Assembly (NCBI GenBank): GCA_027083355.1
Contig: JALWOY010000069.1
Span: 7,893-71,892 of the forward strand
Source: Phycisphaerales bacterium
GTDB lineage: Bacteria > Planctomycetota > Phycisphaerae > Phycisphaerales > UBA1924
Reading direction: 5' to 3'
DNA: 64,000 bases
The notes under the pieces are model-generated. The model saw only the letters and a list, made by a program, of their open reading frames with translations. It was not told where the DNA came from and ran no database searches. Below, piece after piece: positions 24,212 through 60,756 of this stretch (its first letter is position 1; each line of letters begins with the position of its first letter). A program made the translations under genes and the position numbers.

Positions 24212-24214
24212 ACG

Positions 24215-26959: not shown

Positions 26960-26986
26960 CCGTGGCTCCTGTGCGAGAACCAGCGC

Positions 26987-29246: not shown

Positions 29247-29259
29247 CACGGAGCGACGC

Positions 29260-29838: not shown

Positions 29839-30221
29839 AACACAAATCCCGGCGGGGGATCTCGATCGTCGAATCCGCCTTCATGATCCCCATCCTCATG
29901 TCGCTCATCTTCGGCGCCATCGAGGCCGGCATGATGCTGCACATGCGGCAGAACATGCTCGCCGCGGCCCGAGAGGGCGCCCGCACCCTCGCCGTCCAGG
30001 GCGGCACACCCGCCGACGCCGAACAGGCCGCGCTCGCCCTGCTCCCCGGCGGCGATCTCGACTTCGATGTCATCGCCACGCAGCCCGGGCCCGACGACCC
30101 CAACCGCGACGTGGTCGTCGAGGTCAGCGTTCCCTTCGCCCAAGCCTCGCTCGGTGATATGTTCGGGCTCTACGGCGACGACCGGATGAGCGTCAGCGTC
30201 ACGATGCGGAGCGAACAGTGA
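29826..30221 (+). CDS. tadE: TadE-like pseudopilin
   Basis: MARMKHKSRRGISIVESAFMIPILMSLIFGAIEAG is a TadE-type N-terminus. Overlaps the cpaA 3' end. Confidence 0.8.
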   Translation: MARMKHKSRRGISIVESAFMIPILMSLIFGAIEAGMMLHMRQNMLAAAREGARTLAVQGGTPADAEQAALALLPGGDLDFDVIATQPGPDDPNRDVVVEVSVPFAQASLGDMFGLYGDDRMSVSVTMRSEQ

Positions 30222-30250
30222 GAACCCCCGACAGAGGAAGGAGTGACATC

Positions 30251-39370: not shown

Positions 39371-40294
39371 TCACCCGAAACGCCCGGTGACGTACTGCTC
39401 CGTCTCCAGCAGCCTCGGGCATTGGAAGATCGTCTCCGTCGGGCCGTACTCCACCAGATGCCCGAGGTACATGAACGCCGTGAACCGGCTCACCCGCGCC
39501 GCCTGCTGCATGTTGTGCGTCACGATCAGGACCGAATAACGCGTCGAGATCTGCGCGATCAACTCCTCCACACGCTGCGTCGCGATCGGGTCGAGCGCCG
39601 AGCACGGCTCATCCAATAACAACACCTCGGGGTCCGAAACAATCGCTCGCGCGATGCACAGCCGCTGCTGCTGCCCACCGGAAAGCCCCAGCGCCGGCGC
39701 GCGCAGCCGGTCCTTCACCTCGTCCCACAACGCCGCCCCGCGCAGCGCCCGCTCGCACGCGTCCTGCAGGACCGCTTTCTTGCGCACGCCGTCGATCCGC
39801 AGCGGGTACACCACGTTCTCGAAGATCGACATCGGGAACGGGTTGGGCTTCTGGAACACCATCCCCAGACGTTTGCGAAGATCGATCACGTCCATCCGGG
39901 GCGAGTAGATCGACTCCCCGTTGAGGCGCATCTCCCCCTCGATCCGAACCCCGTCGATCAGATCGTTCAGCCGGTTCACGCTCCGCAACAGCGTGCTCTT
40001 GCCGCACCCGGACGGCCCGATCAACGCCGTCACGGTGCCCTTCGGGATCGGCATCGAGATGTCAAAGAGGGCACGCGTCTGCCCGTACCAGAGCGAGAAG
40101 CGGTCGATGTCGAGCACGGCCGGCGCCCGCCGAACCTCGTCGTGCACCGCCGCCTCGGTCGGCTCCCCACGACGGATCGCGTCGAGGACCGAAGCCGTCC
40201 CGTCCGGCGTGGCCCGCGGCTGCCCGGCCGACTTTGGCTCGATCATCCCCGTCACCCCGATCCCGCCTCTCTCGCCCAGCAGTGAAGCGTTCAT
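39371..40294 (-). CDS. pstB: phosphate ABC transporter ATP-binding protein
   Basis: ...[20 protein letters not shown]... [17 protein letters not shown] 40294 overlaps the pstA stop (ATGA). Confidence 0.92.
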
Positions 40295-42609: not shown

Positions 42610-45146
42610 AGGGCCGCGTTCCGTTTCCGGAAGTGCTGGCGGACGACTTCCGCGGTTGTGTTGATGACGAGGGTCATGGCGAAGAGGACCAGCCCGCAGA
42701 GAAAGAGCACGCGGTAGTGCGTGCCGCCTGCGGGCGCCTCGGGCAGTTCGACGGCGATGTTTGCGGCGAGGGTCCGGAACCCGGAGAAGATGTTCATCGA
42801 CATCTCGGGCGTGTTCCCGGTCGCCATGAGGACGATCATGGTTTCGCCGACGGCGCGCCCCAGCCCGATCATGACCGCGCTGAAGACCCCGCTGCCGGCG
42901 ACGGGGAGGACAACGCGCAGCGCCGTCTGCCACGGCGTGGCGCCGACACCCAGCGAAGCCGACCGGAGCCGATTCGGCACGGCGTGGATCGCGTCCTCGC
43001 TGATGGTGTAGATGATGGGGACGACCGCGACGCCCATGATCAGCCCGACGACGAGCGTGTTGCGCTGGCTGTACGGACCGAAGATCGAATGCCGGGGATC
43101 GAACCCCGCCGAGTCGAGCGCAGAGGCCAGCCCGTAGGCGAGGCCGAGCGAAACGGCGAGATTGCCAAGCAGCCGGCCCAGTTCGATCAGGTATGCCCAA
43201 CGGGCGGGTGCGTCCCGCGAGAGCCGACGCCACACCGGGCCGAGCACGACCGTGTCGATGATCAGCAGGATCGCGATCACGGGCAGAAGCAGCACCACGA
43301 ACCACCCGGGGGCCGCGGGGCCGGTGCCCTCGTTGAGCCAGGCGATGATCGACCCGCCCCCGGCCTGCCCGAACAGATTGTGTTCGAGCAGGGTCCCGGC
43401 TGGGATCGAGACGGCCGCCCCGAGCAGGACCGCCGCGGCGATCAGCGCAAGCCGTCCCGCGCGTCCCCATTCGGTGCGTGACCCGCCCCGCGCCGCTCTC
43501 CAGGCGTGCGCCGCGAACACGATGGTCAGCGGGCCGACGAGCGCGAACGCCATCAGCCGGGGGAGCTGATCGCGCACATAGGGCGCGACGACCATGGCCG
43601 CGATGAACCCGAGCACGACCGACGGGAGCGAGGCCAGCAGCTCGATCGTGGGTTTGACGTACCGCCGCACGTCGCGGTGCAGGAACTCGCTCGAATAGAT
43701 CGCCGCGAGCACCGCGAGCGGGATCGCCACGATCATCGCGACAACGGTCGCTTTCATTGTGCCGAAGATCAGCGGGATGAGGCTGAACTTGGGCTCGGCC
43801 TGTGTCGATCCGGTCGATTGGTACACATACGCCGGCTCGTCGTACCCCTCGTAGAGCACCTTGCCGAACAGCGTGCGCATCGAGACCTCGGCGTATCCCG
43901 GTACGACCGAGGTCACCGCGGCGAGGCCCGCATCATCGATCACGAACACGGCACGCGAATCGGGCGAAGCGGCCGCGAGCGCGACGGGGCGGGCGTGCCC
44001 GGCGTCGACCGGGGGGATATGCACGATGATCTTGTCGCTCAGGATGTTGTACATCACCGCCGAGCCGTCTTCGAAACCGACCATCATGGTGCGGTCGCGG
44101 TCGCCGGGTCTGATCGACGTGACGGGGGCTTCCCCCAAGGTCCGCCGGCGGATGAACCTCGGGCGGCCGGCGCGGACCACCCAGCCCGAGACCCCGCCAC
44201 GCCCGTCGCCCAACAACAGGGTCTCGGACCCGAGAAGCATCGCCGCGACCGTGATCGGCTCGCCCGTCTCGACGAGCCGGACGTCGGAGGATTCTGATAA
44301 ACGGTCCCGCACGCCCAGCGTGCCGTCACGCCAGACCGCGGCGGCCCAGTTGCCCGATCCCGACGCGAACACCCACCCCGGCGGCTCCGGCTTGTCGATC
44401 GGCGTGGGGTCGTCGAGCGAGAGCCGATAGCGGACGGTTCCCACGCCGAGCGCCCGCCGCCCGGTGAGCACGCCGGTGATGATCCCGTCTTCAGTCGCCG
44501 CGGCGACGTACCGCTTGAGGCGGGTCTTGCCGCGTGTGTCGACGGCGGCGGCACCTTCGATGGGCTTGAACCGGCCGATCCGTTCGGCGGTGAGGGTCCA
44601 GCGTTTGCAGCCGGTGTCGTCGCATTGCAGGTATTGCGAGGGGTCTTCACTGCGGGCGAGGCCTGTTTCCGTTGCGGAGTTCGGCGTCGCCGGTTTCCAG
44701 CCGAGCACGGCGCGGACGATCTCGAAACTGCCATCGTCGCGGGTGAGTGTGAGCCATCCCTCGCCGGACTCGACCCGGACCGAGGCCGGTGCTCCCCCGC
44801 CCTTCAGCGCCGGGGTCCGGGCGAGCACCTCGCCGCCGTCGATGGCGTGAACGCGGAAGAAACCGTCGCGTTCGAGCGTGACGAATCGGTCGAACGCGGG
44901 ATCGACCGCGAGCCAGAGGGGGGCGGGGGTTTCGGGTTTGAAGCGTGCCCGTTCACCCAGAACACGCCCGCCCAAAAACAGCGGGTAGGCGCTCCAGACA
45001 AGGAACGCGAGCAGGCCGAGCATCGTCAGCAACACCGCCAGGCCGCCGGAACGGATCAACATCGCGGCGGCGCGGTCTTCGATGCGCACCCAAGGCGACG
45101 TGCGGCGTCCCGCCGAAGCATCGTGCCCGGGGGTTGGTGTGGTCAT
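42606..45146 (-). CDS. pstC: phosphate ABC transporter permease PstC, unusually long form with a large periplasmic insert
   Basis: The C-terminal ~330 aa match PstC (...IPLIFGTMKATVVAMIVAIPLAVLAAIYSSEF...; ...ASLGVGATPWQTALRVVLP). An insert of about 400 aa follows TM1. Confidence 0.85.
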   Translation of the reverse strand: MTTPTPGHDASAGRRTSPWVRIEDRAAAMLIRSGGLAVLLTMLGLLAFLVWSAYPLFLGGRVLGERARFKPETPAPLWLAVDPAFDRFVTLERDGFFRVHAIDGGEVLARTPALKGGGAPASVRVESGEGWLTLTRDDGSFEIVRAVLGWKPATPNSATETGLARSEDPSQYLQCDDTGCKRWTLTAERIGRFKPIEGAAAVDTRGKTRLKRYVAAATEDGIITGVLTGRRALGVGTVRYRLSLDDPTPIDKPEPPGWVFASGSGNWAAAVWRDGTLGVRDRLSESSDVRLVETGEPITVAAMLLGSETLLLGDGRGGVSGWVVRAGRPRFIRRRTLGEAPVTSIRPGDRDRTMMVGFEDGSAVMYNILSDKIIVHIPPVDAGHARPVALAAASPDSRAVFVIDDAGLAAVTSVVPGYAEVSMRTLFGKVLYEGYDEPAYVYQSTGSTQAEPKFSLIPLIFGTMKATVVAMIVAIPLAVLAAIYSSEFLHRDVRRYVKPTIELLASLPSVVLGFIAAMVVAPYVRDQLPRLMAFALVGPLTIVFAAHAWRAARGGSRTEWGRAGRLALIAAAVLLGAAVSIPAGTLLEHNLFGQAGGGSIIAWLNEGTGPAAPGWFVVLLLPVIAILLIIDTVVLGPVWRRLSRDAPARWAYLIELGRLLGNLAVSLGLAYGLASALDSAGFDPRHSIFGPYSQRNTLVVGLIMGVAVVPIIYTISEDAIHAVPNRLRSASLGVGATPWQTALRVVLPVAGSGVFSAVMIGLGRAVGETMIVLMATGNTPEMSMNIFSGFRTLAANIAVELPEAPAGGTHYRVLFLCGLVLFAMTLVINTTAEVVRQHFRKRNAAL

Positions 45147-46258: not shown

Positions 46259-46786
46259 TCAGCGTCCCGCGCCAACGCGGATCGTCGCCGTACCGGTGCT
46301 GAATACCCGTTCATTTGACGCATCCACGGTGAAGATTGCGCGAAGACTGGCCGGGCGGGACGGCATCCGCTCCCGGCGCGGGTCCATGCGGAGCATGAAG
46401 CGGTAGTTCGCCCCGGCCTCGGATTCACCGAGCGCCTCGGCGGTCTCGCCGGGGGGGAAGATCCAGTGCCCGAGCCGCTCGCCGTCGAGGCCGTCGAGGA
46501 AGAACTCGAATGAACCTTTCGCCTTGATCGGCAGGGCGTACCGCCGGGTGTCGCCGAACAGGTAGACCACCACGGGGATGGTGTCGGGGTAGTTGTTCCC
46601 GTCGGTGTCGGACGCCACCCCGGCCGACAGCATCATCTGCACCGGTTTGATCCCCGCGGGTTGCGCGGGTCGGCGTACGGCGTGGGTCTCACGCGCCGGG
46701 GCGACGGCCCTTGTTTCTGTGACGCACCCCGAAGCCGAGACCAACACCCCCAACACGGCCGGAAGAATTAGCACACGAGTGTTCAA
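46259..46786 (-). CDS. small lipoprotein translationally coupled to the giant secretin (candidate pilotin/accessory factor)
   Basis: TTG start at 46786 overlaps the secretin TGA (cc-TTGA-ac). (M)NTRVLILPAVLGVLVSASGC is a lipobox. The mature part has beta-rich character. Confidence 0.6.
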   Translation of the reverse strand: MNTRVLILPAVLGVLVSASGCVTETRAVAPARETHAVRRPAQPAGIKPVQMMLSAGVASDTDGNNYPDTIPVVVYLFGDTRRYALPIKAKGSFEFFLDGLDGERLGHWIFPPGETAEALGESEAGANYRFMLRMDPRRERMPSRPASLRAIFTVDASNERVFSTGTATIRVGAGR

Positions 46787-49700
46787 GGTTCACCCCCGTC
46801 GGGTTCACGGGTGTCGCCCATCGGTTCCGGCTCCAGCATCGGCGGGGTGTCGCCCCCGTCGGGGACCGGCCCGCCCGGAAGGAATCGCTTGCCCTGTTCG
46901 ATCGAGTCCTGCACGCGGGTGGAATCGTCGAGTGAGTCGAGGGCGTTGTCAAGAATGCGCCCCTGGAGCTGCGACGACGCCGGCTCGTCGCCCGGGATGA
47001 CCACGGGGCGGAGCACCACGAGCAGCTCGGTCTTGACGTTGTTCCGCGTGCTGGACTTGAACAACTCGCCCACGAGCGGGATATCGCCCAGCAGCGGGAT
47101 TTTCCACACGCGCTGCTCGCCCGTGGTTTGGATCAGCCCGCCGATGACCACGGTCTGTCCGTCGCGCACCGTCACGGTGGTGTCCACGCGGCGCTGCGTG
47201 ATGATCGGGCTCTCGAAGTTCGCGTCGATCTGCGTCGTCCGGGCGCTCACCGACGAGATCTCCGGGGCGATGTCCATGCGCACGAACCCGTCCGGCGAGA
47301 TCGAGGGCGTCACGTTCAGGATGATGCCGACGTCCTGCCGCTCCGTCACCGCCGAGACGCGGTCCTGGAACTGGTTGCTCCCGGTGACGATGCTCACGTT
47401 CTCGCCCACCTGGATCATCGCCTGCTCGTTGTTGTTGACCGTCACCTGCGGGCGGCTCAGCACCTCCAGCTTGCCCTGCACCTCGAGGGCCCGGATGAGC
47501 AGGTTGAAATCGGTGCTCGACACCGAGAAGTTGGGCACGCCCAGCGCCGTCGCCGCCCCGGCGCCCGCGGCGAGCTTGTTGAACACGTACCCGTCGCCGC
47601 CGATCCTGCTCGTGGAGACATCCAGCCCGACGTTGAAATCCAGCCCCCACTCGGAGGTGTCGTCGAGCGTCACCTCCGCCAGCAGGACCTGGATCATCAC
47701 CTGCGGCGGCGAGGCGTCCAGCTCGGCGATGATCCGCTTGACCGTCTCGATATACCGGGGCGACGCCGACACGAGCACCTTGTTCGATTTCTCGTCGCCG
47801 ACGACCGTGACCTCCTGCTCGAGCTGCCTCGCCAGCGAGCCGGTCAGGTTCGGGCCCAGCACGCTGCGGCGCAGCTCGGCCTCGCCGCGGAAGTAATCCA
47901 TCAGCACCGTCTGGATCTCGGACGCCTGCGCGTTCTTCAGCGAATACACCAGCTGCTCACGCTCGTTGGCGTCGATGCTGTCGAGACCCTCGACCACCTC
48001 ACGCACCTGTTCCAGATACTCCTTCGTCCCCGAGACCAGCAGCGTGTTCGTCCGGCGGTCGATCGTGATCGCGAGCGCCTGCCGCATGTCGGGCACCGGT
48101 GTGAACATCCCCGTCTCGCCGAACCCCGTCTCGCCGCCCGGCTGGTTCTGCTGATCGTCTCGGTTTTCCTCCTGCCTCGGCACGAGCACCAGCCGGTCGC
48201 CCTGCTGCTGGAGGTTGAACAGATCCCGCAGCAGCAACGCCATCTGCTGGGCGTCGGCGTTCTTGAGCCGGTACTGCGCGATCTCGCGGTCGCCCGAGGT
48301 CTCCTCGTCGAGATCGCGGATGATGTCCTCGATCAGCGTCATGATCGCCTCCGGGGCCGACACCATCACCGAGTTCGTGCGCAGATCCGGGGTCATCCGC
48401 ACCTGCTCACGCACGGCCGCGTCGATCGTCGCCTCGGTGGCGCCCTCCTCGAACTCGCCCTCGAGCTTCTTGCGGTAGAACCGCATCTTGACGGCCTGGG
48501 CGCCGCCCCGGCCGCCGGCGATCGGGCGACCCGCGAGCACCCGCTCAACGAGCCGGACCATCTCGACCGCGTTGGCCGCCCGCAGCTGGATGCGTTTGAC
48601 CTCCTGAACCGTCTCGGCCTCGGGCTGGTCGAGTTGTTCGACGAGGTCGCGGATCGCGGCGATGTCGTCGTCCGTCCCGCTGACCAGCAGCGCGTTCTGC
48701 CGCTCGTTGGCGATCACGCTGACCGACTGCCGCCCCCGCTTCTCGTTCTCACGCCGGACGTACAGCTCGTTGATCGACTTGGCCAAATCGGCCGCCCCGC
48801 CGGGCGACTCGACCGGGATCAACTCGACGCGCTCGGCCTCGGCGAACCCCTCCCCGCCGGCGGTCATCGCGTCGATCAGCTCGTGCACCAGTTGCAGGTT
48901 CTCGTCGCTCGCGGCCACGATCAGCAGGTCGTCCGACGGCACCGCCTCGATGCTGAACGCGTCGAGCGGGTTGTCCACCCCGCCCCGGCTGCGCTGGGCG
49001 CGGATCCGCTCGGTCATCAGCCGTCGGATCTTCGGCGCCAGGTCCGCCACGTCCGCGCCCGGCACGGGCACGACATGCAGCCCGACGGCGAAACGCGCCT
49101 CGTCGCGGTCGAGCGTCTCGATCAGTTTCTCGAGCACCGCGAAGCTCCGCGGGCTGGTCGAGACGATCAACGCGTTCGTGCGCGCATCGACGGACATGAT
49201 CAGCCGGTCCTCGGGGCGGGCCGTGGTCTGTTTGGCACGCTCGTCGAAGATGTCGCGCACGACCCCCGCGACCCGGTCGGCCGAGGCGTGTTCGAGCGGG
49301 ATCACCCGCACCGAGTTGTCCGCCGCCGCTTTCTCGACATCCAGCTGCTTGACCAGTGTGCGCACGACCTCGATGTTCGTCGGCGTGCCGACGACGACCA
49401 ACGCGTTGAGTTCCTCCTCCGGGGTGATGACGAGCCCGGACATCGGCGCGAACAGATCGCTCGGCACGGTCTTGACGCCGGCGGGCTCCCCGTCGTCCTC
49501 GATGACGAGCCGGAGCCGGCCGATCTGCTTGCGAAGCCCGATCGCGTCGGGCGTGGCGCCCAGCCCGCGAACGAGCACCTCGTCGAGCTTCTTCGACAGC
49601 GTGACCGCGTCGGCGTATTGCAGCGGGACGATCTCCGCCTCGATCCAGCCGCGGTCGGCCGTGTCGCTGTCCATGTTCTGCACCAGCACCTCGACGAGCG

Positions 49701-52700
49701 CGATGGCCTCCTCGCGCCCGGCGACGATCAGCGAGTTCGTACGCTCATCGACCGACACCGCGACGTCGCCGCGGAGGGCCTTGCCCGTCTCGGTGGACGG
49801 GCTGCCCTGCCGGCGCGTGCCGGGCAACCGGCTGAGGGCCTCGCCCTTGCGGAAGAGTTCCTCGATGATGCGCTGCACGCGTGACGCCGACGCGTTCTCG
49901 AGCGGGAAGATCCGCACGACCACGGCGTCGCCCAGCGGCAGCTTGTCGAACAGCGGCACGATCGCCTGCATCGCCTCCACGTTTTCCGGCGTCGACGCGA
50001 TCAGCACCGAGTTCGTCTGGGTGTCGGCGGTGAGCTTGATGGGCACGGACAGGTCGAGCGAGACGCCCTTGTTGTCGAACACGCCCTCGACCAGCGAGAG
50101 CCGACGCACCTGCTCGGCCAGCGCCGCCGCCGGTTCGGTCTTGCCGTCCGCGGGCATCGGGCGCAGCAGCCCGTCGAGCAGCGGCACGAGCCGGGAGGCA
50201 TCGGCGAGCTTCAGCGGGACGATCGCCAGCGACTGCGCCGCCTCGATCTCGACCGAATCGAGCCTTTCGATGAGCGCCCCCACCGTCTTGAGATCCATCG
50301 GCCCGGCGACCACCGCGACGGCCCGCCGGGTCTTCATCGGGACGACCCGGATCGGCTCGCCGACGATGCCGGGCCGGTCCGCCGGCTGCGGGCCGGTCAG
50401 CCCCAGCCTCGTGAGCAGGCCCGCCATCGACTCGGGCGAGGTGTGCTTGAGTTCGAACACGCCCACGCTCTGCCCGACGCCGGGGGTCGGGAGTTCTTCT
50501 TCGCTCTTTTCGCCGGTGTCCTGTTGATCGGCCTCGTCCGATCCGTCGAGATCACGGGCCAGGGCCTCGATCTGCTTGTGCAGTTCCTCGCTCGCGGCGA
50601 CAACCAGGGCGTTGGAATCGCGGTCGACCTCGATCGTCAGCGTCTCGCCGCGTTTCTGGGCCATGGGGGAGAAAATGTTGACCAGCATCGAACGCAGCCG
50701 GGCCGCGGGGAGGCGGTGCAACCGAACGATGCGCGGGGTGGCCCCCGCCCCTTCACCCGCCGCCATCAGCGACTCGGCCAGTTCGCGGATCTGATCGAAC
50801 GATGCTTCCTCGGCCCGGACGATCAGCACGCCCGCGTCGTCGTCGCCCACGATCACCGTCCGGCTCGTCGACCCGCGGCGGGTGGTGCTGAGGAAGACGG
50901 ACCGCACCCGGTCCGCGAGCACGCTCGGGCGGATCGTCCCCGTGACGGGGATCAGCCTCGCCTCGGCCAGCCGCTGGAACTCGGGGACATCGATCTGCTG
51001 AACGATCTTCTCGATCCGCTCGATCTCCTTGCGGCTGGCGAAGACGATCAGGGTGTTTGTCGCGGGCTCGGCCGACACGCTGGGGGTTTCCTCGGCGCTG
51101 ACGAGCACCGCGGGGGCCTCGTTTTCTTCCCGCTGCCGGCCCGAGCGCCGGCTTGTCCGGGTGCGCTCGTTCTTGAGGCGCTCCCGCTGGATCTCCTGTT
51201 CGAGCGGGGCGCGGAAGCCCTCGTTGAGCGCCCGGGCCACACTCTCCGCGTCGGCGTGCTTGAGCGCGATCAGCACGAGCTGGCGGGACGTGTCGTACGC
51301 CGGCGTGTCGAGCCTTTCGAGCAGGGCGCGGATGTCTTCGAACACCGACTCGTCACCGGTGATCAGCAGCGTGTTGGCCGTCTGGTCGGCGATGATCGTC
51401 ACGTTGCGTTCGTTCTCGCCGCGGGCCTCGGGGGCGCCGGACCCGTAGAACACGCCGAGGGCTTTGCGGACCGCATCGGCCCGGGCGTATTCGAGCTTGA
51501 CGAACTCGGTCCGCCTCGTCGTGGGCTGCGGGGTGTCCAGCTGCGAGATCATCTCTTCGATGAAGCCCATCTCGTCGGGCGAGGCCGTCACGCTCAGCAC
51601 GTTGCTGTTGAGGGAATAGTCGATGCTGGGCCTCGCCACGCCCGCCGCACGCGGTCGGTTGGACAGCATGTTCCGCAGGATGATCGCCGTGTCGATCGCC
51701 TCGGCGTGGACCAGTTCGAACCGCTTGAACTCGATCGGCGACTGCACCGCGGCCGTGTCCAGCTCCTTGACCTGATCCATCACGAGTTGCACGGCGTCGT
51801 CGGACCCGGTCAGCAGCAGCGCGTTGCTCCGCGCGACGGGCGTGATCTTGACCTTTACGCCCTGCGGGAGCGCCGCGAGCAGGCTCTGCGCGACGTCCGC
51901 CGCCCTCGCCGATTCGAGCGGGACGGTGACGATGCTCGACGACGCCTCGTCGGCCACCTGGTCCAGCTCCGTCAGCAGCGTCTCGATCTGCTCGAACGCG
52001 CGGTCCGGGGCCGACACGATCAACGCCCCCCGGCTGGGCTGTGGCGTGACGACGACGCGTTCCTCAGCCGGGCCGCGGGACGGGAACATCGCCCGCAACG
52101 TCGTCGCCACCTCGCGCACGTCGCTGTTAGACAGTGTGTAGACCTCGATCCGGCGGTCCTTGCTCGTCTCGGGCTGGTCGATCTGGGCGACCAGGTCCCG
52201 CAGCACGGGCATCTCATCCGGCGGGGCGCTGACGATCAGCAGGTTCCCCTCACGCGAGCCGATGATCGCCACCGAATCGGGCCGCTTCTGCTCGGCCCGC
52301 GCCTTGCCGCGGAAGAACCGCGTCAGGCTGTTGGCCGCACGTGACGCCTCGGCGTACTTCAGCCGGATCGATTCGATCACCTGCCCCTCGGCCCCGCCGG
52401 CGTTGTCGATCGTGGCGATGTATTCGGCCGCCTGCTCGACATTCGCCTGCTCGCCGATCAGCAGCACGAGCCGGCGGTCGCGGTCGACCTCCACCTGCAC
52501 CTGCTTCGGGTCGCGTCCCTGCCACCAGCGCCAGCCGGGCGTGGCCGTGATCGACTCGATCAGCCGCTCGATCGCGCTCAGATCGCCCTTCTCGACCATG
52601 ACGGCCTTGACGACCATCTTCGTGTTGTCGGCCGAGGGCTGGTCGAGTTCCTTGATGACCTGCTCGACCGTGTCGAGGATCTCGCCCTCGCCGAAGACGA

Positions 52701-55700
52701 GCACGGAGTTCGTCCGGCGGTTCGTCTCGACGAGCATCCGAGCTTGCATCGCGTTGTTCTGGTTCCGGCCCCACATCCGCTCGAACTGGAGCTCATCGGC
52801 GATGCTCTTGACCGTGTCCGCGATATCATCCACGCTCGCGTGTTCGAGCGGGATGATCCTGAACGATGTCGAACGGTCGGGCGAAGGCGCGTCGAACTGA
52901 TCGACGAGGCTCTTGATCTGCTCGTAGTCCTCGTCGCTGGCCGCGATCACGATCGTCCCGCTTCGGCGGTCGCCGAAGATCGCCGCGTCGCCGGAACGAT
53001 TCGCCCCCCGCCGGCCCGCGACGCGCGCCCTCTGCTGGAAAAACCGCTGCAGACCCGTCGCCACCTCGCCCGCGTCGGCCCGCTGCAGCTTGATCGAACG
53101 CACCGGGTACGAGCCCGTCTCCGACACGTCGATCTTCGCGACGAGCTCGCGGACCTCGGCGATCGTCTCGGCGTCCGCCTTGACGACGAACGTGTTGGTC
53201 GAGTCCTCCGCAGAGATCTGCACCTTGTCCTTCTTCGCGGGGTCCCGCCCCACCACCACCTGCTCGACGATCCGCCGCATCGCGCTGGGCAACGCGTGCT
53301 CCAGCGGGATGACCGCCATCTCCAGGTTCGGCTCCTCCATCGACACGTCGCTCGACGCGATCAACTCCGCGATCTCGGCGTGCTGCGCACTCGTCGCCGT
53401 CACCAGCACGCTACCCGTGCGCACGTCGGGCACCAGCCGCACACGCGGCACCGAGTTCGCCCCCGGCCCCTGCCGCTTGGCGTCCATGATCTGCTGCACC
53501 GTCGAGGCCAGCGTCCTCGCGTCGGCGTTGTGCAGCGCGTACCGCCGGACCTCCATCCGGTCCGTCACGGGGTTCTGATCCAGCAGCCCGATGAACCGGT
53601 CGATAATGTCGATCGCCCCGCTCGGCGCCGACACGATCAGCGACCGCCCCGCCGGGTCGCTCGTCACCGTCACCCGCTCGGGGTCGAACGTGCCCTCGAG
53701 CGCATTGCCGTCGGCGTCCTCCACCGTCAGCATCAGCTCTCGAACCCGTCGGGCCTGCCGACCCCGCGGCCGGGCGCTGAGCAGGTCGCGCACCGACCGC
53801 ACCGCGCCCCGGGCGTCGATGTTCGTCAGCGGGTAGACCTTGATCGTGAGTTGAGCCGAGCGGTCCAGCCTCGCCACGCCTTTGATGAGCGACGACACCG
53901 TCTCGAAGTCCGTGTCGTTCGCCCACACGATCACCGCGCCGGCCTGCGCGTCCGGGCTGACCGCGACCCGGCCCGTGAACCCGCCCGGGTTCGTGTCGCT
54001 CGCCCGGCCCACCTGCCGCACCGTCTGCGTGATCAGGTTCGCCACCGTTCGCGGATCGGCCGACTCGGGCAGCTTGACCACCCGCACCGCCGTCGGCTCG
54101 GCCGGTGCCTGCCGCTGGATCTCCGCCGCCAGTTCCGCCAGCCTCGCCGTCATCCGCTCGGACCCGACCACGATCAGCGTGTTCGTCTCGGGGTCCACCG
54201 CGATCGTCACCGTCGGGGTATCACCGTCCCGAGTACCACGTTCGCGGGTATCACGGTTCTCCGAACCGTGTTCTGCATCCGCATTCTGGGTACCACGGTT
54301 CTCCGAACCGTGCTTCAGATTCTCGGCTCGGAGAGCCGAGGTACCCGGATCCTCCACAGCGGCGAACACCATCTCCGCCGACATCCGCTCGATGAGCCGA
54401 TACAGCCCGCCCCTCGCGGGTTGATCGAGCAGACCCCCACCCACGGGCGCCCGGCTCGACCCCTTCTCGCCCTCCTTCTCGTCCTTGAGCAGCTCGTCGG
54501 CGCTGATGACCTCAACCTTCACGCCCCCCTGCTGTTCGAGCAGACGCCGGAGCGTCCGCGCCACGTCCTGTGCCCCCATCCGCGAGCGGTCGACGCGGAT
54601 CGTGCGCATCTGACGCGACGTCGTGAGCGTGGCCGAATCCAGCTGCGACGCGAGCCGTTCGATGAGCGACATCTGCGGCGCGGTCGCGCTGACGATCAGC
54701 GAGTTGGACCCCTTGTCCACCCGCAGCGTCGGGGGCGTGCCGCCCTCGGTGTCGTCGGCGAGCACGGCCTGGAGGTTGATCGCCATCTCGCCCGCGTCGG
54801 CGCTGCTCAGGGGGATGACCTTGACGATCCGCCCGCCGCCCGGGCCGTCGGGGTCGAGGTCCAGCCCCGCGACGACCTGCTCGGCCAGTTCGAGCACGGG
54901 GGCCGGGGCGCTGACGACGATCGCGTTGAGCCGACGCTCGGCCGCGACCTTGACCGGCGGCTTGTCGTCGGCGATGCCGCTGCGGGCCTTCTGCAGCCGG
55001 AGCTGCCAGCTGGCCCACCAGTTCTGCTGGGCGAGCTCGTCCTGATCGGACAGCACCCGCTCGACGATGGGCGCGATCGACTCGGCCCTTGCGTGCTTGA
55101 GGAAGATCGTGCGCACGCCGATGGTCGCCGGCTCGGCGCTGACGGTGTCCATCGATTCGATCAGCCCCGCCGCCTTTTCGAGCCGCTCCGACGTCGCCGC
55201 CACGAGCACGGTGTTGCTGTTGGACTCGGCGGACACCCTCGGCTCGGGCTCGCCCGCGGGCAGCCCCGCTTTCAGCGTCTCACGCAGCGCTTTGGCCGCC
55301 GATTCCGCGTCGCCCTTTGTCAGCCGGAAGACGCGCACCTCGACGGCCGACTCGCCCCGCGGCTGGTCGAGCGTCGCGATCAGGTCGGACGCCATCGGCA
55401 TCAACGGGCCCGGCACGCTCACCAGCAGCCGGTTCGTCCCCGCGTCCGCCTGGATCGTCGGCCGGGCGATGTTCAACCCCGCACGCTCGGCGCGCTGCAG
55501 ATCCTCCGGCCAGCGGCTCCGGTCGCTGAGCATCTGCTGCACCGTCGACGCCACGGCCCGGGCCTCGGCGTGCGCCAGCGGGAAGCTCCGCATCTCGACC
55601 AGCGGCATCGACACCGAGCGGTCGTCGAACTCGGCCAGCAGTTTCACTGCCTTGTTCGCCTGCTCGGCCGGCCCGATCACGAGGATCGCCCCCGACGCCG

Positions 55701-58700
55701 GCTCGACCTCGATCTCCAGCGGACGCCGCTCGATCGGCATCGTCTCGCGCACGATCTTCATCACGGTCTTGGCCAGCACCGCCGGGTCCGCCTTGGCCGG
55801 GGTGAACGTCAGCACCGTCCGGTCCGTCTGCTGCGCCGGCTCGTCGAGCCGCTCGATCACGCTCTTTGCCAACTGGATCGACTCGGCCGGACCGCTGACG
55901 ATCAGCGAGTTCGTCCGCCGCTCGGCCTCGACGCGGATCTTCGGCGGTTCGACGTACCGCCCCCGGCTGTACCGGAGCCTCGCCGCGAGGATCCGCGGGT
56001 CGGTCTGCTGCTGGTCGATCAGCAGACGCTCGACCGTGCGCACGATCTCGCCCGCGTCGGCGTGCGCCAGCGGGAACGTCTCGACCGCGGGCTTCTCCGG
56101 GTCGAACGGCTGCTTGTCCAGCGGGTCGATCAATTCTTCGACCTTCTTCAGATCCGCCGGCGCCCCCGTCAGCAGCAGCGCGTTGGACCCCACCGCCGCC
56201 AGCACCGCCACCGGCCCGCCCGCGGGCAGGTCCATCTTCGGCACCGCGCCGCTCAGCGTCCGGGCCACGTCGTTCGCGTCGGCGAACGTCAGCGGGACGA
56301 TCTTCACCACGGTGCGGCCCACCGTCGCGGCCTCGGTGTCGAGCGCCTCGATCAGCTGCCGCGCCACGGCCTGGATCTTCTCCGGGGCCGAGATGATCAG
56401 CGTGTTGCTCGCCGGGTCCGCCGCGACTTCGAGCAGCTCGTCGACGAGGCGCTCGGGGGCCTCGCCGGTCTCGCGCAGCCGGGCGGTGAGAAGCCGCTCG
56501 AGGAGCGATTGCAGCCGATCCGCCTTGGCGAACTTGAGCGGGTACATCTTGAGCGTGGTGTCGGGCCGGTCGACGTCGCCGTCCACCTCGCCCAGCACGC
56601 GTTCGACCTGGGGGAAGATCGTCTCGGGGCCCGACACGATGAGCGACCGGCTGGCCGGCTCGACGCTCACCGTCACCGGCGTGTGCCCCGTCGCGCCCAG
56701 CGCCCCGCTGGAGCCCAGCTGCCGCAGCGTGTTGGCCACCGAGTTCAGGTCGGCCCGCTCGACGCGGTACGTCCGCAGCTCGACGCCCTCGTCCACGTTC
56801 AGCTTGTCGAGCGACTCGACGATCTGCTCGAACCCCGCCAGCCGCTGGGCCGGGGCGTCCACGATCAGCGAGTTCGTCACCGGGTCCGCCCGGACGGACA
56901 CTTCCTTGCGCCCGCGCAGGTGCGGCAGGGGCCGGCCCCGCCGGTCGTACGGCATCGGGGGCTCGGGGTACATCGCGTCGATCGTCTTGGCCAGTTCCTC
57001 GGCCCGCGCCACCTTGAGCGGGAAGATGCGGATCTCACGCCCCTCGCGGTCGTAGGCCTGCGCCTCGTTCAACTCGCTGACGATCTGCTCGATCTCGGGC
57101 AGCACGTCCGGGTGGGCGCTGACGATCAGCGAGTTCGTCGACGGGTCCGCCTGGATATCCACCGGCTTGAGCTGCCGGTCCTCGGGCTTGCGCTGCTGGT
57201 AGTTCCGCTGGAGGATCTGCGCGATGTTCGTCGCGTCGGTCGAACGCAGACGGATGATCCGCAGCGGCGGGCGGTCGGCGCTCTGCTGGTTGTCCAGCGA
57301 GCGGATGAGCGATTCGATGATCCGGAACTGCGCCGGCTGCGCCGCCACCATGATCGAGTTGTTCGACTCGATCGCCTCGAACACGGGCTGCGGGCCGCCG
57401 TCGGCGCGCAGCGCCTCGCTCGTCTTGACCATCTCACGCAGGAAACCGACGACCTCCGCCGCCTTCGCCAGCCGCAGCTCGATCATCCGCACCTCGCGGG
57501 CAGGCCCGATCTGCCGCTGCAGCTCGTTGATGATCTTCATGAACCGGTCCATCGCCTCGCGGTCGGCCACCACCTCCAGCGAACTGGTCGACTCGTCCAC
57601 CGTCACGTCCACAGGGCCGGCCCCGGGGATCTGCGCGATCTGCGCTTTGTAGATCGCCAGCGCCCGGTCGCGCACGTCCGCCGGGTCCGCGTTGGCGATC
57701 GGGACGATCCGCAGCCCGCGCTCCACCGGCACCGCCGTCAGGTCTTTCAGGATCTGCTCGACCTTCTCGAACGTCACCTCGTCGCCCGCGACGATCAGCG
57801 TGTTGGACCGCGGCTCGACCTCGATGACGACATCGACCTTCTGCTTGCCGGGCTGGGCCGGGCCCGAGAGCGTGCCGCGGCGTGCCAGCCCCGTGAGCAT
57901 GCTCGCGACCGCACGCAGGTCGGCCCGTTCGATCCGGTATGTGCGCAGCTGCGCCACCGGCGGCACCTCGACGCGGTCGAGCGTCTCGGCGAGCGCTTCG
58001 AGCGACTCGCGCCGGTCCGCCGGCGCGTCGATGATCAGCGAGTTGCTCGACGCGTCGGCGGAGACCGTGACCTCTTTCTGCTTCTGGAGCCACGGCATGG
58101 GCCGGCCCCGCCGGTCCCGCGGCATCGGGGGCTGCGGATACAGCTTGTCCATCGCGGCGGCCACGTCCGTCGCCCGCGCCACCTTGAGCGGGAACAGGAA
58201 CGTCTCGCGGGCCGGGCCCTCGGTGCGTTCCTTGTTGAGATCATCGACGAACGACTTGATCTCGTCGAACAGGTCCGGGTGGGCGCTGACGATCAGCGTC
58301 CCCGTCGCCGCGTCGGCGCGCACCTGCACGGGCCGCGCCGTCCGGTCCGCCAGCGGGCGGCTGTTGTACTGCTGTGTCAGCATCGACGCCACCGCGTTGA
58401 CGTCGGCCGTGCGCACCTGCAGCAACTTCAGCGGCGGCAGCTCGCCCCGCTCGACCGTGTCCAGACGGCGCACGAAATCCGCGATCATCCGCTGCTGCGC
58501 GTCCTCGCCCGTCACGAGCAGCGAGTTCGTCCGCTCGATCACGCTGATCTTCGGGTCCGGCACCTTCCGCGACGGGTCCACCGGATCGGCCGAGTCGAGC
58601 AGCTCCTGCAGCGGTTCGAGGATCGACTTCGCCTCGACATTGTGCACGTCGATGATCCTCGTCGTGCGCGCCGGGGGCGTCAGCTGCTGCGCCTGGCGCA

Positions 58701-60726
58701 GCGATTCATCCAGCAGCCGGAGCGCCTCGGGCGTCCCCCGCGCGATCACGTTGCCGCTCAGCTCGTCGTATTCCGTCTCGACCGGCTCGGCCGCGGGGTC
58801 CTTCGCGTCCAGCGTCTGGGCGCGTTCAGCCGCCAGCGACAACGCCCGGTCCAGCAGGCCCTTGGGGTCGTGCCCTCGGATCGGGATCACCCGCAGCTGC
58901 CGCCCGGTGGGCTTGTCGACGTCCAGCTGCGCGATCAGCTGATCGATCACGGCGAACTGCTCGGGCTCGGCCCGGACGACCAGCGTGTCCAGCTCGTCGA
59001 GCGCCTCGAACGTCGGCGCGACATAGGCCGACCCGTCCTCCGGCTCGAGCATCGGCTTGGCGAGCCGGGGCAGACGCGAGGCCAGTTCGCTCGGGCGCAG
59101 CACCTTCGGCTCATAGGTGTGCTTGATCGTGCGCACGGCGACGGCGCCCGCCGCCTCGCGGATGCGCCCCTCCAGCCGGGCGATCGCCGCACGCGAGCCG
59201 ATGAGCGTCGCCGTCCGGGTCTGCTCGTCGAGCACCGCCCGCACGGGGTCGTCGGCGGCGGCGTCGGCCAGGTTGTCCAGCTCGACGGCCTTGTCGAGGA
59301 TCGCCTTCGCCCCGGCCGCACCGGGGATCTTCACCTGCCGCACCTCGCGCTTGACCTCGGGCTTGAGATCGATGCCCTCGACCAGCTGCTCGAACGCGTC
59401 GACATCCGCCGGCGGGCCCGACACCAGCAGCCCCTTGCCCGACGGCGTGGGGGTGTACCGCAGCATCTGGTTCTGACGCGGGCTCAGCATCCGCCCCGCG
59501 ATCGACACCACCGACGACGGCGCCGCGTACTTGAGCGGGATCACCCGGGCCGTCGTGGTCGGCTCGATCGGCTCGTCGCCCGCCTGCCCCGGGTCCAGCT
59601 CGCCCAGCAACGCCGTCGCCTGGAGCAGCAGGGCACGGTCGGCCACGATGACCAGCTTGCCCACCGCGTCCAGCGGCAGGATCGTCGGCTTGCGCGTGTC
59701 GGGCACGCCCCGGAAGAGCGCTTCGAGTTGCGTCTTGGCCTGCGACGGGGTGACCGTGCGCAGGGCGAAGGTCGAGAGCCGGGTCTCGCCCGCCTCGATC
59801 CCGCCCTCGGGCGCGTCGAGCAGGGCGATGAGTTCCTCGACGGTCTGGATGCGCGCCGCCGACCCGACGGCGATGATCGCGTTGAGCCGCTCGTCGGCCT
59901 GCAGGTTCAGGCCGGCGACGTCGATCTGCTCGACCTGGCGGATCTTGCCGTCCTTCTCGATGATCTGCTTGAGGATCCGCTGGCCCACCAGCCCCTTGAG
60001 CGCCTCGACCGCCTGCGCCGCCTTGGCGTGACGCAGCGTGAAAATCCTGTACTGCGAATCGACCGGCTTGACCGCGTCGATGTGCTCGACGATCTCGCGG
60101 ATCCGTTGGCACTGCGCCGCCGTCTCCACCACGATCAGCATGTTCTGCGCTTCGACCGGCGTCACCAGCCCCGGCGCCTTGACCAGCGGCTTGATCTTCT
60201 CGGCCACGTTCGTCACGTTCGAGTTGCTCAGCGGGATCGTGATCGTCAGGTACTGCGACGGGTCGACATCCTTGAAATCCGTCCCGTCGAACACCGGGCC
60301 CGGCTTGCGGGCGGCTTCCTCCAGTGTGCGCAGATACAGGAAGTTCTTCTCACGCACCACGATCCGCTGGTGCATCGCCAGGTTCAGGTTGAGGATCTCG
60401 AGCGCGTCCTTGAGCGAGTAGTCCGCCGCCGAGATGAACGTCATCGCCCCCGCCGGCACCGACGCCTCGCGGATCACGGGCAGCCCCGTCTCGCGCGCGA
60501 AGAAATCGAGCACCTGCGCGAACGGGGCGCCGCTGAAGTTGAACCGCAGCCGGACCGAGTCCGGGTCGGTCGCGCCCCGTTCGGCAGCCGGCTTGTCGAC
60601 GTGCGTCTCGGCCTGACCGCCCGGGTTGTCCGGCGTCGGGGGCACGGCATCCTGAGCCGAGCAGGGCAGACCGGCGACGGCCAGAATCGCGGCGGCGAGC
60701 AGAACAGTCGATTGGCGATCCATCAC
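46783..60726 (-). CDS. giant secretin: signal peptide, N0-like domain, about 50 tandem secretin-N-type modules, C-terminal secretin barrel domain
   Basis: 4,647-aa uninterrupted ORF. N-terminus MMDRQSTVLLAAAILAVAGLPCSAQD. N0-like segment ...FNFSGAPFAQVLDFFARETGLPVI.... A module of about 84 aa on average recurs by eye roughly 50 times (h-x-h-x-L-x-x-A-x-A..h...L..h......h..D..TNSLIV.A.......h..LI..LD). The C-terminus ...LIRALEVQGKLEVLSRPQVTVNNNEQA.I.VG..V......VGIILNVTP.IS.DG.V.M.I..E.S.........PII..R...T.V.V.DGQTVVIGGLI........KIPLLGDIPLVG.LF.S......KTELLVVLRP is the canonical secretin domain. Confidence 0.85.
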   Translation of the reverse strand: MMDRQSTVLLAAAILAVAGLPCSAQDAVPPTPDNPGGQAETHVDKPAAERGATDPDSVRLRFNFSGAPFAQVLDFFARETGLPVIREASVPAGAMTFISAADYSLKDALEILNLNLAMHQRIVVREKNFLYLRTLEEAARKPGPVFDGTDFKDVDPSQYLTITIPLSNSNVTNVAEKIKPLVKAPGLVTPVEAQNMLIVVETAAQCQRIREIVEHIDAVKPVDSQYRIFTLRHAKAAQAVEALKGLVGQRILKQIIEKDGKIRQVEQIDVAGLNLQADERLNAIIAVGSAARIQTVEELIALLDAPEGGIEAGETRLSTFALRTVTPSQAKTQLEALFRGVPDTRKPTILPLDAVGKLVIVADRALLLQATALLGELDPGQAGDEPIEPTTTARVIPLKYAAPSSVVSIAGRMLSPRQNQMLRYTPTPSGKGLLVSGPPADVDAFEQLVEGIDLKPEVKREVRQVKIPGAAGAKAILDKAVELDNLADAAADDPVRAVLDEQTRTATLIGSRAAIARLEGRIREAAGAVAVRTIKHTYEPKVLRPSELASRLPRLAKPMLEPEDGSAYVAPTFEALDELDTLVVRAEPEQFAVIDQLIAQLDVDKPTGRQLRVIPIRGHDPKGLLDRALSLAAERAQTLDAKDPAAEPVETEYDELSGNVIARGTPEALRLLDESLRQAQQLTPPARTTRIIDVHNVEAKSILEPLQELLDSADPVDPSRKVPDPKISVIERTNSLLVTGEDAQQRMIADFVRRLDTVERGELPPLKLLQVRTADVNAVASMLTQQYNSRPLADRTARPVQVRADAATGTLIVSAHPDLFDEIKSFVDDLNKERTEGPARETFLFPLKVARATDVAAAMDKLYPQPPMPRDRRGRPMPWLQKQKEVTVSADASSNSLIIDAPADRRESLEALAETLDRVEVPPVAQLRTYRIERADLRAVASMLTGLARRGTLSGPAQPGKQKVDVVIEVEPRSNTLIVAGDEVTFEKVEQILKDLTAVPVERGLRIVPIANADPADVRDRALAIYKAQIAQIPGAGPVDVTVDESTSSLEVVADREAMDRFMKIINELQRQIGPAREVRMIELRLAKAAEVVGFLREMVKTSEALRADGGPQPVFEAIESNNSIMVAAQPAQFRIIESLIRSLDNQQSADRPPLRIIRLRSTDATNIAQILQRNYQQRKPEDRQLKPVDIQADPSTNSLIVSAHPDVLPEIEQIVSELNEAQAYDREGREIRIFPLKVARAEELAKTIDAMYPEPPMPYDRRGRPLPHLRGRKEVSVRADPVTNSLIVDAPAQRLAGFEQIVESLDKLNVDEGVELRTYRVERADLNSVANTLRQLGSSGALGATGHTPVTVSVEPASRSLIVSGPETIFPQVERVLGEVDGDVDRPDTTLKMYPLKFAKADRLQSLLERLLTARLRETGEAPERLVDELLEVAADPASNTLIISAPEKIQAVARQLIEALDTEAATVGRTVVKIVPLTFADANDVARTLSGAVPKMDLPAGGPVAVLAAVGSNALLLTGAPADLKKVEELIDPLDKQPFDPEKPAVETFPLAHADAGEIVRTVERLLIDQQQTDPRILAARLRYSRGRYVEPPKIRVEAERRTNSLIVSGPAESIQLAKSVIERLDEPAQQTDRTVLTFTPAKADPAVLAKTVMKIVRETMPIERRPLEIEVEPASGAILVIGPAEQANKAVKLLAEFDDRSVSMPLVEMRSFPLAHAEARAVASTVQQMLSDRSRWPEDLQRAERAGLNIARPTIQADAGTNRLLVSVPGPLMPMASDLIATLDQPRGESAVEVRVFRLTKGDAESAAKALRETLKAGLPAGEPEPRVSAESNSNTVLVAATSERLEKAAGLIESMDTVSAEPATIGVRTIFLKHARAESIAPIVERVLSDQDELAQQNWWASWQLRLQKARSGIADDKPPVKVAAERRLNAIVVSAPAPVLELAEQVVAGLDLDPDGPGGGRIVKVIPLSSADAGEMAINLQAVLADDTEGGTPPTLRVDKGSNSLIVSATAPQMSLIERLASQLDSATLTTSRQMRTIRVDRSRMGAQDVARTLRRLLEQQGGVKVEVISADELLKDEKEGEKGSSRAPVGGGLLDQPARGGLYRLIERMSAEMVFAAVEDPGTSALRAENLKHGSENRGTQNADAEHGSENRDTRERGTRDGDTPTVTIAVDPETNTLIVVGSERMTARLAELAAEIQRQAPAEPTAVRVVKLPESADPRTVANLITQTVRQVGRASDTNPGGFTGRVAVSPDAQAGAVIVWANDTDFETVSSLIKGVARLDRSAQLTIKVYPLTNIDARGAVRSVRDLLSARPRGRQARRVRELMLTVEDADGNALEGTFDPERVTVTSDPAGRSLIVSAPSGAIDIIDRFIGLLDQNPVTDRMEVRRYALHNADARTLASTVQQIMDAKRQGPGANSVPRVRLVPDVRTGSVLVTATSAQHAEIAELIASSDVSMEEPNLEMAVIPLEHALPSAMRRIVEQVVVGRDPAKKDKVQISAEDSTNTFVVKADAETIAEVRELVAKIDVSETGSYPVRSIKLQRADAGEVATGLQRFFQQRARVAGRRGANRSGDAAIFGDRRSGTIVIAASDEDYEQIKSLVDQFDAPSPDRSTSFRIIPLEHASVDDIADTVKSIADELQFERMWGRNQNNAMQARMLVETNRRTNSVLVFGEGEILDTVEQVIKELDQPSADNTKMVVKAVMVEKGDLSAIERLIESITATPGWRWWQGRDPKQVQVEVDRDRRLVLLIGEQANVEQAAEYIATIDNAGGAEGQVIESIRLKYAEASRAANSLTRFFRGKARAEQKRPDSVAIIGSREGNLLIVSAPPDEMPVLRDLVAQIDQPETSKDRRIEVYTLSNSDVREVATTLRAMFPSRGPAEERVVVTPQPSRGALIVSAPDRAFEQIETLLTELDQVADEASSSIVTVPLESARAADVAQSLLAALPQGVKVKITPVARSNALLLTGSDDAVQLVMDQVKELDTAAVQSPIEFKRFELVHAEAIDTAIILRNMLSNRPRAAGVARPSIDYSLNSNVLSVTASPDEMGFIEEMISQLDTPQPTTRRTEFVKLEYARADAVRKALGVFYGSGAPEARGENERNVTIIADQTANTLLITGDESVFEDIRALLERLDTPAYDTSRQLVLIALKHADAESVARALNEGFRAPLEQEIQRERLKNERTRTSRRSGRQREENEAPAVLVSAEETPSVSAEPATNTLIVFASRKEIERIEKIVQQIDVPEFQRLAEARLIPVTGTIRPSVLADRVRSVFLSTTRRGSTSRTVIVGDDDAGVLIVRAEEASFDQIRELAESLMAAGEGAGATPRIVRLHRLPAARLRSMLVNIFSPMAQKRGETLTIEVDRDSNALVVAASEELHKQIEALARDLDGSDEADQQDTGEKSEEELPTPGVGQSVGVFELKHTSPESMAGLLTRLGLTGPQPADRPGIVGEPIRVVPMKTRRAVAVVAGPMDLKTVGALIERLDSVEIEAAQSLAIVPLKLADASRLVPLLDGLLRPMPADGKTEPAAALAEQVRRLSLVEGVFDNKGVSLDLSVPIKLTADTQTNSVLIASTPENVEAMQAIVPLFDKLPLGDAVVVRIFPLENASASRVQRIIEELFRKGEALSRLPGTRRQGSPSTETGKALRGDVAVSVDERTNSLIVAGREEAIALVEVLVQNMDSDTADRGWIEAEIVPLQYADAVTLSKKLDEVLVRGLGATPDAIGLRKQIGRLRLVIEDDGEPAGVKTVPSDLFAPMSGLVITPEEELNALVVVGTPTNIEVVRTLVKQLDVEKAAADNSVRVIPLEHASADRVAGVVRDIFDERAKQTTARPEDRLIMSVDARTNALIVSTSPRSFAVLEKLIETLDRDEARFAVGLHVVPVPGADVADLAPKIRRLMTERIRAQRSRGGVDNPLDAFSIEAVPSDDLLIVAASDENLQLVHELIDAMTAGGEGFAEAERVELIPVESPGGAADLAKSINELYVRRENEKRGRQSVSVIANERQNALLVSGTDDDIAAIRDLVEQLDQPEAETVQEVKRIQLRAANAVEMVRLVERVLAGRPIAGGRGGAQAVKMRFYRKKLEGEFEEGATEATIDAAVREQVRMTPDLRTNSVMVSAPEAIMTLIEDIIRDLDEETSGDREIAQYRLKNADAQQMALLLRDLFNLQQQGDRLVLVPRQEENRDDQQNQPGGETGFGETGMFTPVPDMRQALAITIDRRTNTLLVSGTKEYLEQVREVVEGLDSIDANEREQLVYSLKNAQASEIQTVLMDYFRGEAELRRSVLGPNLTGSLARQLEQEVTVVGDEKSNKVLVSASPRYIETVKRIIAELDASPPQVMIQVLLAEVTLDDTSEWGLDFNVGLDVSTSRIGGDGYVFNKLAAGAGAATALGVPNFSVSSTDFNLLIRALEVQGKLEVLSRPQVTVNNNEQAMIQVGENVSIVTGSNQFQDRVSAVTERQDVGIILNVTPSISPDGFVRMDIAPEISSVSARTTQIDANFESPIITQRRVDTTVTVRDGQTVVIGGLIQTTGEQRVWKIPLLGDIPLVGELFKSSTRNNVKTELLVVLRPVVIPGDEPASSQLQGRILDNALDSLDDSTRVQDSIEQGKRFLPGGPVPDGGDTPPMLEPEPMGDTREPDGGEP

Positions 60727-60756
60727 AAACTCCTTACCCCCTCCGGGGGAAGATCC

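Follow-up and report, generated by a model that had tools for sequence, protein, structure and literature searches.

A giant secretin gene in a type II secretion operon

The window (the whole stretch of DNA analysed, 64,000 nucleotides long and free of N letters) carries on its minus strand the final genes of a gsp operon, in which the last core gene, gspD, encodes a secretin of 4,647 amino acids. The features of this region, by window position, are as follows:

63299..64000, minus strand: gspK, 3' part only (the source contig gives it as 532 aa), with gspJ, gspI, gspH, gspG and gspF outside the window, past its end
61776..63302, minus strand: GspL-position protein of 508 aa, combining a PilM-like actin fold with a TM helix and a periplasmic domain
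60757..61776, minus strand: 339-aa bitopic protein with an N-terminal TM helix, a coiled coil, a Pro-rich linker and a C-terminal beta domain
46783..60726, minus strand: gspD, the giant secretin ORF, a single uninterrupted frame of 4,647 codons from GTG
60652..60726, minus strand: Sec signal peptide, aa 1-25, read directly
60304..60549, minus strand: N0 domain, aa ~60-141 (phmmer, AlphaFold with Foldseek)
47713..60255, minus strand: array of 50 secretin-N (beta-alpha-beta-beta-alpha) modules, aa 158-4338 (HMMs, AlphaFold models)
57970-58212 and 56800-57042: modules 10 and 15, whose helix 1 and strand 2 are separated by the loop YP(Q/E)PPMP(R/Y)DRRGRP(M/L)P
54259..54525, minus strand: low-complexity insert of ~90 aa (aa 2068-2156), which splits module 25
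46987..47673, minus strand: secretin (double beta-barrel) domain, aa ~4352-4580 (Pfam, phmmer, AlphaFold with Foldseek)
46786..46986, minus strand: C-terminal tail, aa 4581-4647, modelled as two helices, then an acidic, Pro-rich end that is disordered
46259..46786, minus strand: 175-aa lipoprotein with the lipobox SASG/C, its start overlapping the gspD stop codon

An ATG at 60723, one codon after the GTG, gives the 4,646-aa protein called in the source record. The mature product has a computed mass of 502 kDa and a computed pI of 5.0, and the GC3 of the ORF (0.93) is like that of the adjoining genes. On the plus strand, at 52744-60780 and elsewhere, the secretin gene is faced by very long antisense ORFs of up to 2,678 aa; these are an expected by-product of GC-rich third codon positions, not genes. 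Comparison of the window with its ENA source contig (ERZ23491061 scaffold_235; 78,870 bp) yielded one mismatch in 12,225 shared bases, at window position 56042, where the codon is Val1562 in the window and Ala in the ENA contig.

Both ends of the protein resemble secretins of type II secretion systems (T2SS). The signal peptide is visible directly in the translation (MMDRQSTVLLAAAILAVAGLPCSA/QD), with cleavage probably after CSA. It is followed by a domain corresponding to N0, the GspC/HR-binding domain of T2SS secretins in known systems. Residues 61-248 match N0-N1 of XcpQ (phmmer against the PDB; E 1.6e-4), and an AlphaFold model of residues 31-600 (pLDDT 78.8) contains an N0-like domain and then six modules, including ones that score weakly by HMM. 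The best Foldseek matches to this model are the XcpQ N0-N1-N2 crystal structures (4EC5, 4E9J, 5NGI; E 3e-12), with PulD, ETEC GspD N0-N2 and the GspC-GspD complex 3OSS also recovered. At the opposite end, residues 4219-4582 match GspD of E. coli, Klebsiella and Pseudomonas (phmmer against the PDB; E 1e-41 to 1e-38). A model of the last 700 residues, built on a 34-sequence alignment (pLDDT 73.7), shows four beta-alpha-beta-beta-alpha modules and then the barrel; its best Foldseek matches are the T2SS secretins 5ZDH, 6I1X, 6I1Y, 5WQ8 and 6HCG (E 1e-30 to 1e-26), the barrels of GspD, InvG, PilQ and pIV all being matched. The tail that the model places beyond the barrel may be an analogue of the S domain.

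Profile searches of the whole protein lead to the same family. Pfam returns 40 individually significant Secretin_N stretches (1353 bits), then a single Secretin domain (PF00263; aa 4413-4577; 164 bits), together with weak matches to KH, the module fold being KH-like; neither an AMIN nor a T2SS-T3SS_pil_N domain was found by Pfam, and no added domain or known binding motif by Pfam or NCBIfam. The best NCBIfam model is TIGR02517 (GspD), at 1219.6 bits against a cutoff of 351, a total that is inflated by the repeats; its best stretch places aa 4148-4582 on profile positions 161-595 of 600. The PilQ model TIGR02515 scores far lower. By all sequence and fold criteria except the four-domain architecture, the protein is a member of the secretin/GspD family: the canonical N0-N1-N2-N3 arrangement of ~650 aa is absent, and N0 plus 50 modules stands in its place. 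In common with GspD, PulD and XcpQ (5WQ7, 5WQ8, 6HCG, 5WLN; 4E9J, 3EZJ), which are its best sequence and fold matches at both ends, it has a signal peptide, N0, N modules and a double barrel, and its gene follows gspC/L-type genes in a gsp operon. It differs from GspD in carrying 50 N-type modules rather than 3; no S domain and no known pilotin family was recognized, an unrelated conserved lipoprotein gene following instead.

In the source contig (locus L083), the operon reads gspF-G-H-I-J-K-L-C-D. By NCBIfam, the first gene fits GspF best, GspG is matched above its cutoff, and GspH, I, J and K are weak best matches in operon order; by Pfam, one of the three further pseudopilin genes is T2SSJ, the other two being weak GspH and GspI matches. 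Genes for T2SSF, T2SSG, three pseudopilins, T2SSK, the PilM-like protein, the 339-aa protein and the secretin are common to L083 and the related loci L084 and L086. The gene order of L083 recurs in L086 and in L084/L085, where the secretin is called at 4,589 aa, and GspE lies nearby in L084. PilT and polysaccharide-export genes are absent from the operon, which holds GspG/J/K-type genes and shows none of the T4aP features AMIN, pilMNOPQ context and PilT. This gene set and order mark the gspD product as the GspD secretin of a T2SS.

Two neighbours are conserved alongside the secretin. The 339-aa protein, encoded directly upstream of the secretin in relatives as well, has no Pfam match and no PDB sequence match; its residues 202-333 match GspC_delta weakly (NCBIfam; E 3e-4, well under the model cutoff). 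GspC-type inner-membrane proteins bind N0 in known systems. The 175-aa lipoprotein follows the secretin directly in at least 21 related loci; it matches no Pfam or NCBIfam family and no known pilotin family, and is a candidate pilotin or accessory protein. Farther downstream lie pstSCAB and sucAB, which are unrelated. The pstC- and pstA-like ORFs in this stretch (42606-45146 and 40291-43470, minus strand) span 846 and up to 1,059 aa, compared with 319 and 406 aa in locus L001, and overlap by ~860 nt, with the permease domain at the C-terminal end only; either they have real N-terminal extensions or their true starts lie further in.

Structure, intactness and conservation of the module array

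The array was delimited with a module HMM built iteratively from the giant protein itself. By this HMM there are 50 modules from aa 160 to aa 4338, their starts lying 83.7 aa apart on average (median 79 aa). [quoted passage not shown] The original prediction, made from the letters and translated reading frames alone, had described one uninterrupted 13.9-kb minus-strand ORF with a cleavable signal peptide, a GspD-N0-like start, about 50 modules averaging about 84 aa with the fold of secretin N1/N2/N3 domains, and a C-terminal secretin barrel. Each of these elements is borne out by the reading frame, profile searches and the two monomer models.

The modules are strongly diverged from one another, with an average identity between paralogs of 22%; modules 10 and 15 are the most alike (57%). 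One old duplication of a three-module block relates modules 9-11 to modules 14-16, and long and short modules alternate in modules 13-24; no periodic super-repeat was found across the modules, identity being independent of module offset. The insert in module 25 is acidic and Gly-rich and contains HGSENR(G/D)T twice; its length varies between orthologs (27-47 gap positions).

Because the source is a metagenome scaffold, and because related assemblies in some cases have N gaps inside the gene and some databases split it, an assembly artefact or decaying pseudogene was considered. Tandem Repeats Finder returned nothing relevant in gspD, and a repeat search found DNA repeat families of at most 83% identity and 94 nt; with no long DNA repeats, misassembly by repeat expansion was ruled out. 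With repeats this short and diverged, and modules 22% identical, an assembler could neither expand nor collapse the array. In the closest relative (GCA_054014275.1; L086) the gene is called at 4,613 aa; over the first 2,982 aa the two proteins share 92% identity, with a dN/dS of 0.19 for the comparison as a whole and of 0.10-0.26 for blocks of 500 aa. Dozens of independent assemblies contain intact ORFs of 3,500-5,500 aa. The artefact or pseudogene reading, which retains a negligible probability, is effectively already refuted, and the earlier reading of one uninterrupted ORF holds.

Comparison with more distant relatives indicates that the array is constrained module by module. Four full-length relatives from different 50%-identity clusters are collinear with the window protein, end to end, over ~4,600 aa at 47-49% identity, and in the multiple alignment all 50 modules have a positional ortholog, with almost no gaps, so that module number and order are fixed within the clade. 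Identity between orthologs is 33-73% per module (mean 49%, against the 22% between paralogous modules), and modules 9, 10, 14 and 15 (68-73%) exceed the barrel domain (57%). Constraint on individual modules is not the pattern of a loose spacer of arbitrary length; by these sequence comparisons, the array is old, selected and position-specific.

The alpha1-beta2 loops differ in length between modules, and most modules have minimal ones. Modules 10 and 15 are the best-conserved parts of the whole protein across orthologs (72-73% identity), and conservation of their loop suggests a putative specific binding site. The whole array might be a scaffold or docking platform for peptidoglycan, cargo or chaperones, binding through its alpha1-beta2 loops, with length a by-product of the number of sites. 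The variation of these loops, the extreme conservation of some (PPMPxDRRGRPxP in modules 10 and 15) and the KH-like fold are compatible with such a role; however, the minimal loops of most modules, the lack of any known binding motif or extra domain, and the large steps in which module number jumps between lineages while the operon stays unchanged make this explanation highly improbable.

Distribution of poly-N secretins and their annotation

A C-terminal profile search of species-representative genomes, with 10-kb flanks, yielded 80 loci. Dozens of these contain an ORF of at least 4,000 aa that runs off the 10-kb flank, and the complete examples measure 3,489-4,268 aa with 31-43 modules. The hosts of giant secretins are Phycisphaerales, other Planctomycetota and Verrucomicrobiota/Limisphaerales. 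The same C-terminal profile recovers secretins of 1,200-1,450 aa with 5-9 modules in Planctomycetia/Pirellulales (loci L053-L081); belonging to the same subfamily and having five to ten times fewer modules than the giant, these are intermediate stages of N-array expansion. A search of 1.84 billion representative proteins with the module profile gave 2,398 matches at E<=1e-30. The best 150 of the 2,398 are 2,185-5,532 aa long, with 26-61 matched stretches, and 115 of these 150 representatives are complete from N0 to the secretin domain (2,794-5,532 aa, 26-57 modules). Complete giants of this kind make up at least 115 clusters at 50% identity. Poly-N giant secretins, defined as single polypeptides that combine N0 with 24 or more Secretin_N modules and a secretin domain, as the window protein does, are widespread in Planctomycetota and Verrucomicrobiota; within the family the window protein is typical of the larger members, being one of many, and longer ones exist.

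The claim that this is not a described class of secretin stands in part. No description of giant multi-N secretins was found in open-access papers and bioRxiv, and in a 2025 review of the phylum the terms 'secretin' and 'secretion system' are both absent; a giant-gene preprint concerns other proteins (10.1101/2023.11.21.568195), and an essential-gene study of Planctopirus limnophila notes an operon with T2SS-annotated and planctomycete-specific genes (PMC10632474). However, the proteins are abundant in public data, where records annotate them automatically as GspD or 'secretin N-terminal domain-containing protein'.

Gene calling has obscured the family. A word-indexed protein database contained no relative longer than ~1,213 aa, but the reading that relatives are short was rejected, since the loci themselves show giant ORFs that had been shortened or replaced by antisense calls. 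At the syntenic loci L001 (1922-13129) and L002 (1196-13441), public gene calls give the secretin genes 1,042 and 1,146 aa; the sense ORFs comprise 3,735 and 4,081 codons, the rest having been called as antisense genes without Pfam matches. Shortening of giant secretin genes, or substitution of antisense ORFs, in several gene-call sets is a practical problem. The only complete-genome match to the family is a 791-aa N-terminal fragment amid short unrelated gene fragments in the closed 5.09-Mb genome record labelled Leptolyngbya sp. 15MV (L088; CP071923.1). It was set aside as unreliable, given that the gene context is jumbled and looks chimeric or badly assembled there; the cyanobacterial label does not fit a secretin family otherwise found in PVC (Planctomycetota/Verrucomicrobiota) genomes.

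A probable periplasmic connector and competing explanations

In known secretins the N domains lie in the periplasm, with N0 turned towards the inner-membrane platform through GspC. This topology contradicts the suggestion in the original prediction that the array projects from the cell and makes extracellular projection unlikely. The accompanying idea of a periplasm-spanning array gains support from the T2SS operon and from the position of the gene directly after that of the GspC-like protein. The placement of N0 and the barrel at opposite ends, the short linkers of 4-13 residues, the GspC-like neighbour and a module number that is fixed within a lineage and varies strongly between lineages together fit a connector of defined length. 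The array is most likely such a fixed-length connector of ~150-200 nm, probably made of stacked rings, that would run through the periplasm from the inner-membrane platform to the outer-membrane pore; we favour this reading with a little better than even confidence.

After Sec export, the C-terminal domain of such a connector would multimerize into the usual 12-15-mer outer-membrane pore, a step in which the conserved downstream lipoprotein may assist, and N0 would dock on the GspC-like protein, which is anchored in the inner membrane, at its C-terminal domain. Between these ends the 50 modules would span the periplasm; the likeliest arrangement is a stack of homo-oligomeric rings of the kind found in GspD and Thermus PilQ. 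At ~3-4 nm per ring, the extrapolated length of the conduit would be roughly 150-200 nm, and a distant outer membrane would thereby be coupled to the pseudopilus machine of the cytoplasmic membrane. Module number may serve as a lineage-specific ruler, set at 5-9 in Planctomycetia and 24-57 in Phycisphaerae/Verrucomicrobiota.

The best functional precedent for a rule of 'longer periplasm, more rings' is PilQ of Thermus thermophilus (757 aa, 13-mer, N0-N5), likewise a secretin extended by extra ring domains. Its six stacked beta-alpha-beta-beta-alpha rings form an 'exceptionally long' structure of ~35 nm that crosses an 'extraordinarily wide' periplasm (PMC5745081, PMC4463427). This is the record, the most rings found for secretins in open-access papers and bioRxiv, and it overturns the earlier statement that known secretins have 2-4 N domains (PMC5745081). 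Thermus PilQ belongs to a type IV pilus/DNA-uptake machine and has five N-type rings, whereas the giant belongs to a T2SS and has 50 modules; relatives of PilQ in the PDB match the giant far worse than GspD does (phmmer), and PilQ is not a close sequence relative.

In its fullest form, the ring model would have 50 stacked rings making a tube of ~7.5 MDa (the computed mass of a 15-mer) and 150-200 nm that carries the pseudopilus or its cargo over an enlarged periplasm, with a genetically fixed module number, from 5 to about 57 in PVC lineages, setting or reporting the distance between the membranes. This version is tentative and has appreciably less than an even chance of being correct. The N0-N2 rings are poorly ordered in cryo-EM maps of GspD (PMC5745081), so that an ordered stack of fifty cannot be taken for granted. 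A closed tube of 150-200 nm also raises the problem of how folded periplasmic substrates would enter, and a pseudopilus within it would have to reach the length of a real pilus.

Substrate entry would be solved if only the module or modules nearest the barrel formed a ring and the other ~45-49 of each subunit ran as separate flexible or semi-rigid tethers, beads-on-a-string rods that connect the pore in the outer membrane with the inner-membrane platform, leave lateral openings for substrates and tolerate a variable periplasm width. Weak order in the distal N rings of GspD and InvG in cryo-EM maps and the visible flexibility of Thermus PilQ between its rings (PMC5745081) are in keeping with such tethers, as is the 22% identity of paralogous modules, which need not then share one ring interface. 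The linkers are nonetheless short (4-13 aa), and every module is conserved at its own position, some above the barrel, which suggests specific packing contacts. All secretin N1-N3-type domains seen in situ form rings, to our knowledge. On balance, separate tethers are possible but rather unlikely.

A tube of 150-200 nm would suit a filament more than a piston, and the machine might instead export or assemble a long fibre or non-protein polymer, guided across the periplasm by a 50-ring sleeve in the manner of a pilus sheath or slime nozzle. Secretins of the GspD and PilQ types are reported to act as slime nozzles of myxobacteria and cyanobacteria (PMC12475490), planctomycete fibres arise from outer-membrane complexes (PMC12673574), and GspK is unusually large at 532 aa. 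Set against this are the T2SS gene set, with GspG above its NCBIfam cutoff and GspH/I/J/K-type minor pseudopilins in order, and an operon in which no PilT, AMIN domain or polysaccharide-export gene was found, and no candidate substrate gene was identified; fibre or polymer export is accordingly regarded as improbable, and the periplasmic connector of defined length remains the preferred reading.

Secretins are among the best-studied bacterial outer-membrane machines, and a short vestibule, two to six rings deep, is how their periplasmic part has so far been viewed. With 26-57 modules, this conserved family would provide the longest known trans-periplasmic protein conduit or tether, and would challenge the piston model of type II secretion by calling cargo entry and pseudopilus length into question. 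The enlarged periplasm of Planctomycetota and Verrucomicrobiota is a long-standing puzzle. Module count offers a concrete sequence trait to compare with periplasm width in these phyla, and a ruler tube, if true, would supply a structural key to the unusual cell plan of planctomycetes and verrucomicrobia.

The window also contains a separate Tad/Flp pilus locus (19670-31711), with the following genes:

19670-20365: TPR protein
20397-20894: lipoprotein
20910-21824 and 21846-22994: TadB/C-like T2SSF genes
22838-24211: CpaF-like ATPase
24215-25402: TadZ
25454-26959: CpaC secretin of ordinary type, 501 aa, with a T2SS-T3SS_pil_N domain
30218-31711, plus strand: TadG-like VWA protein

The Tad secretin CpaC/RcpA (PDB 8ODN) has the same barrel domain as the giant; unlike the giant, the protein encoded at 25454-26959 is of ordinary size, carries T2SS-T3SS_pil_N, has no Secretin_N array and is encoded in a tadZ-cpaF-tadBC locus. 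An ordinary 501-aa secretin in the same window shows that a wide periplasm need not by itself make all secretins of this cell long. A 343-aa protein that carries a prepilin N-terminal methylation motif is encoded at 15872-16903 on the minus strand, away from the T2SS operon and from the Tad locus.
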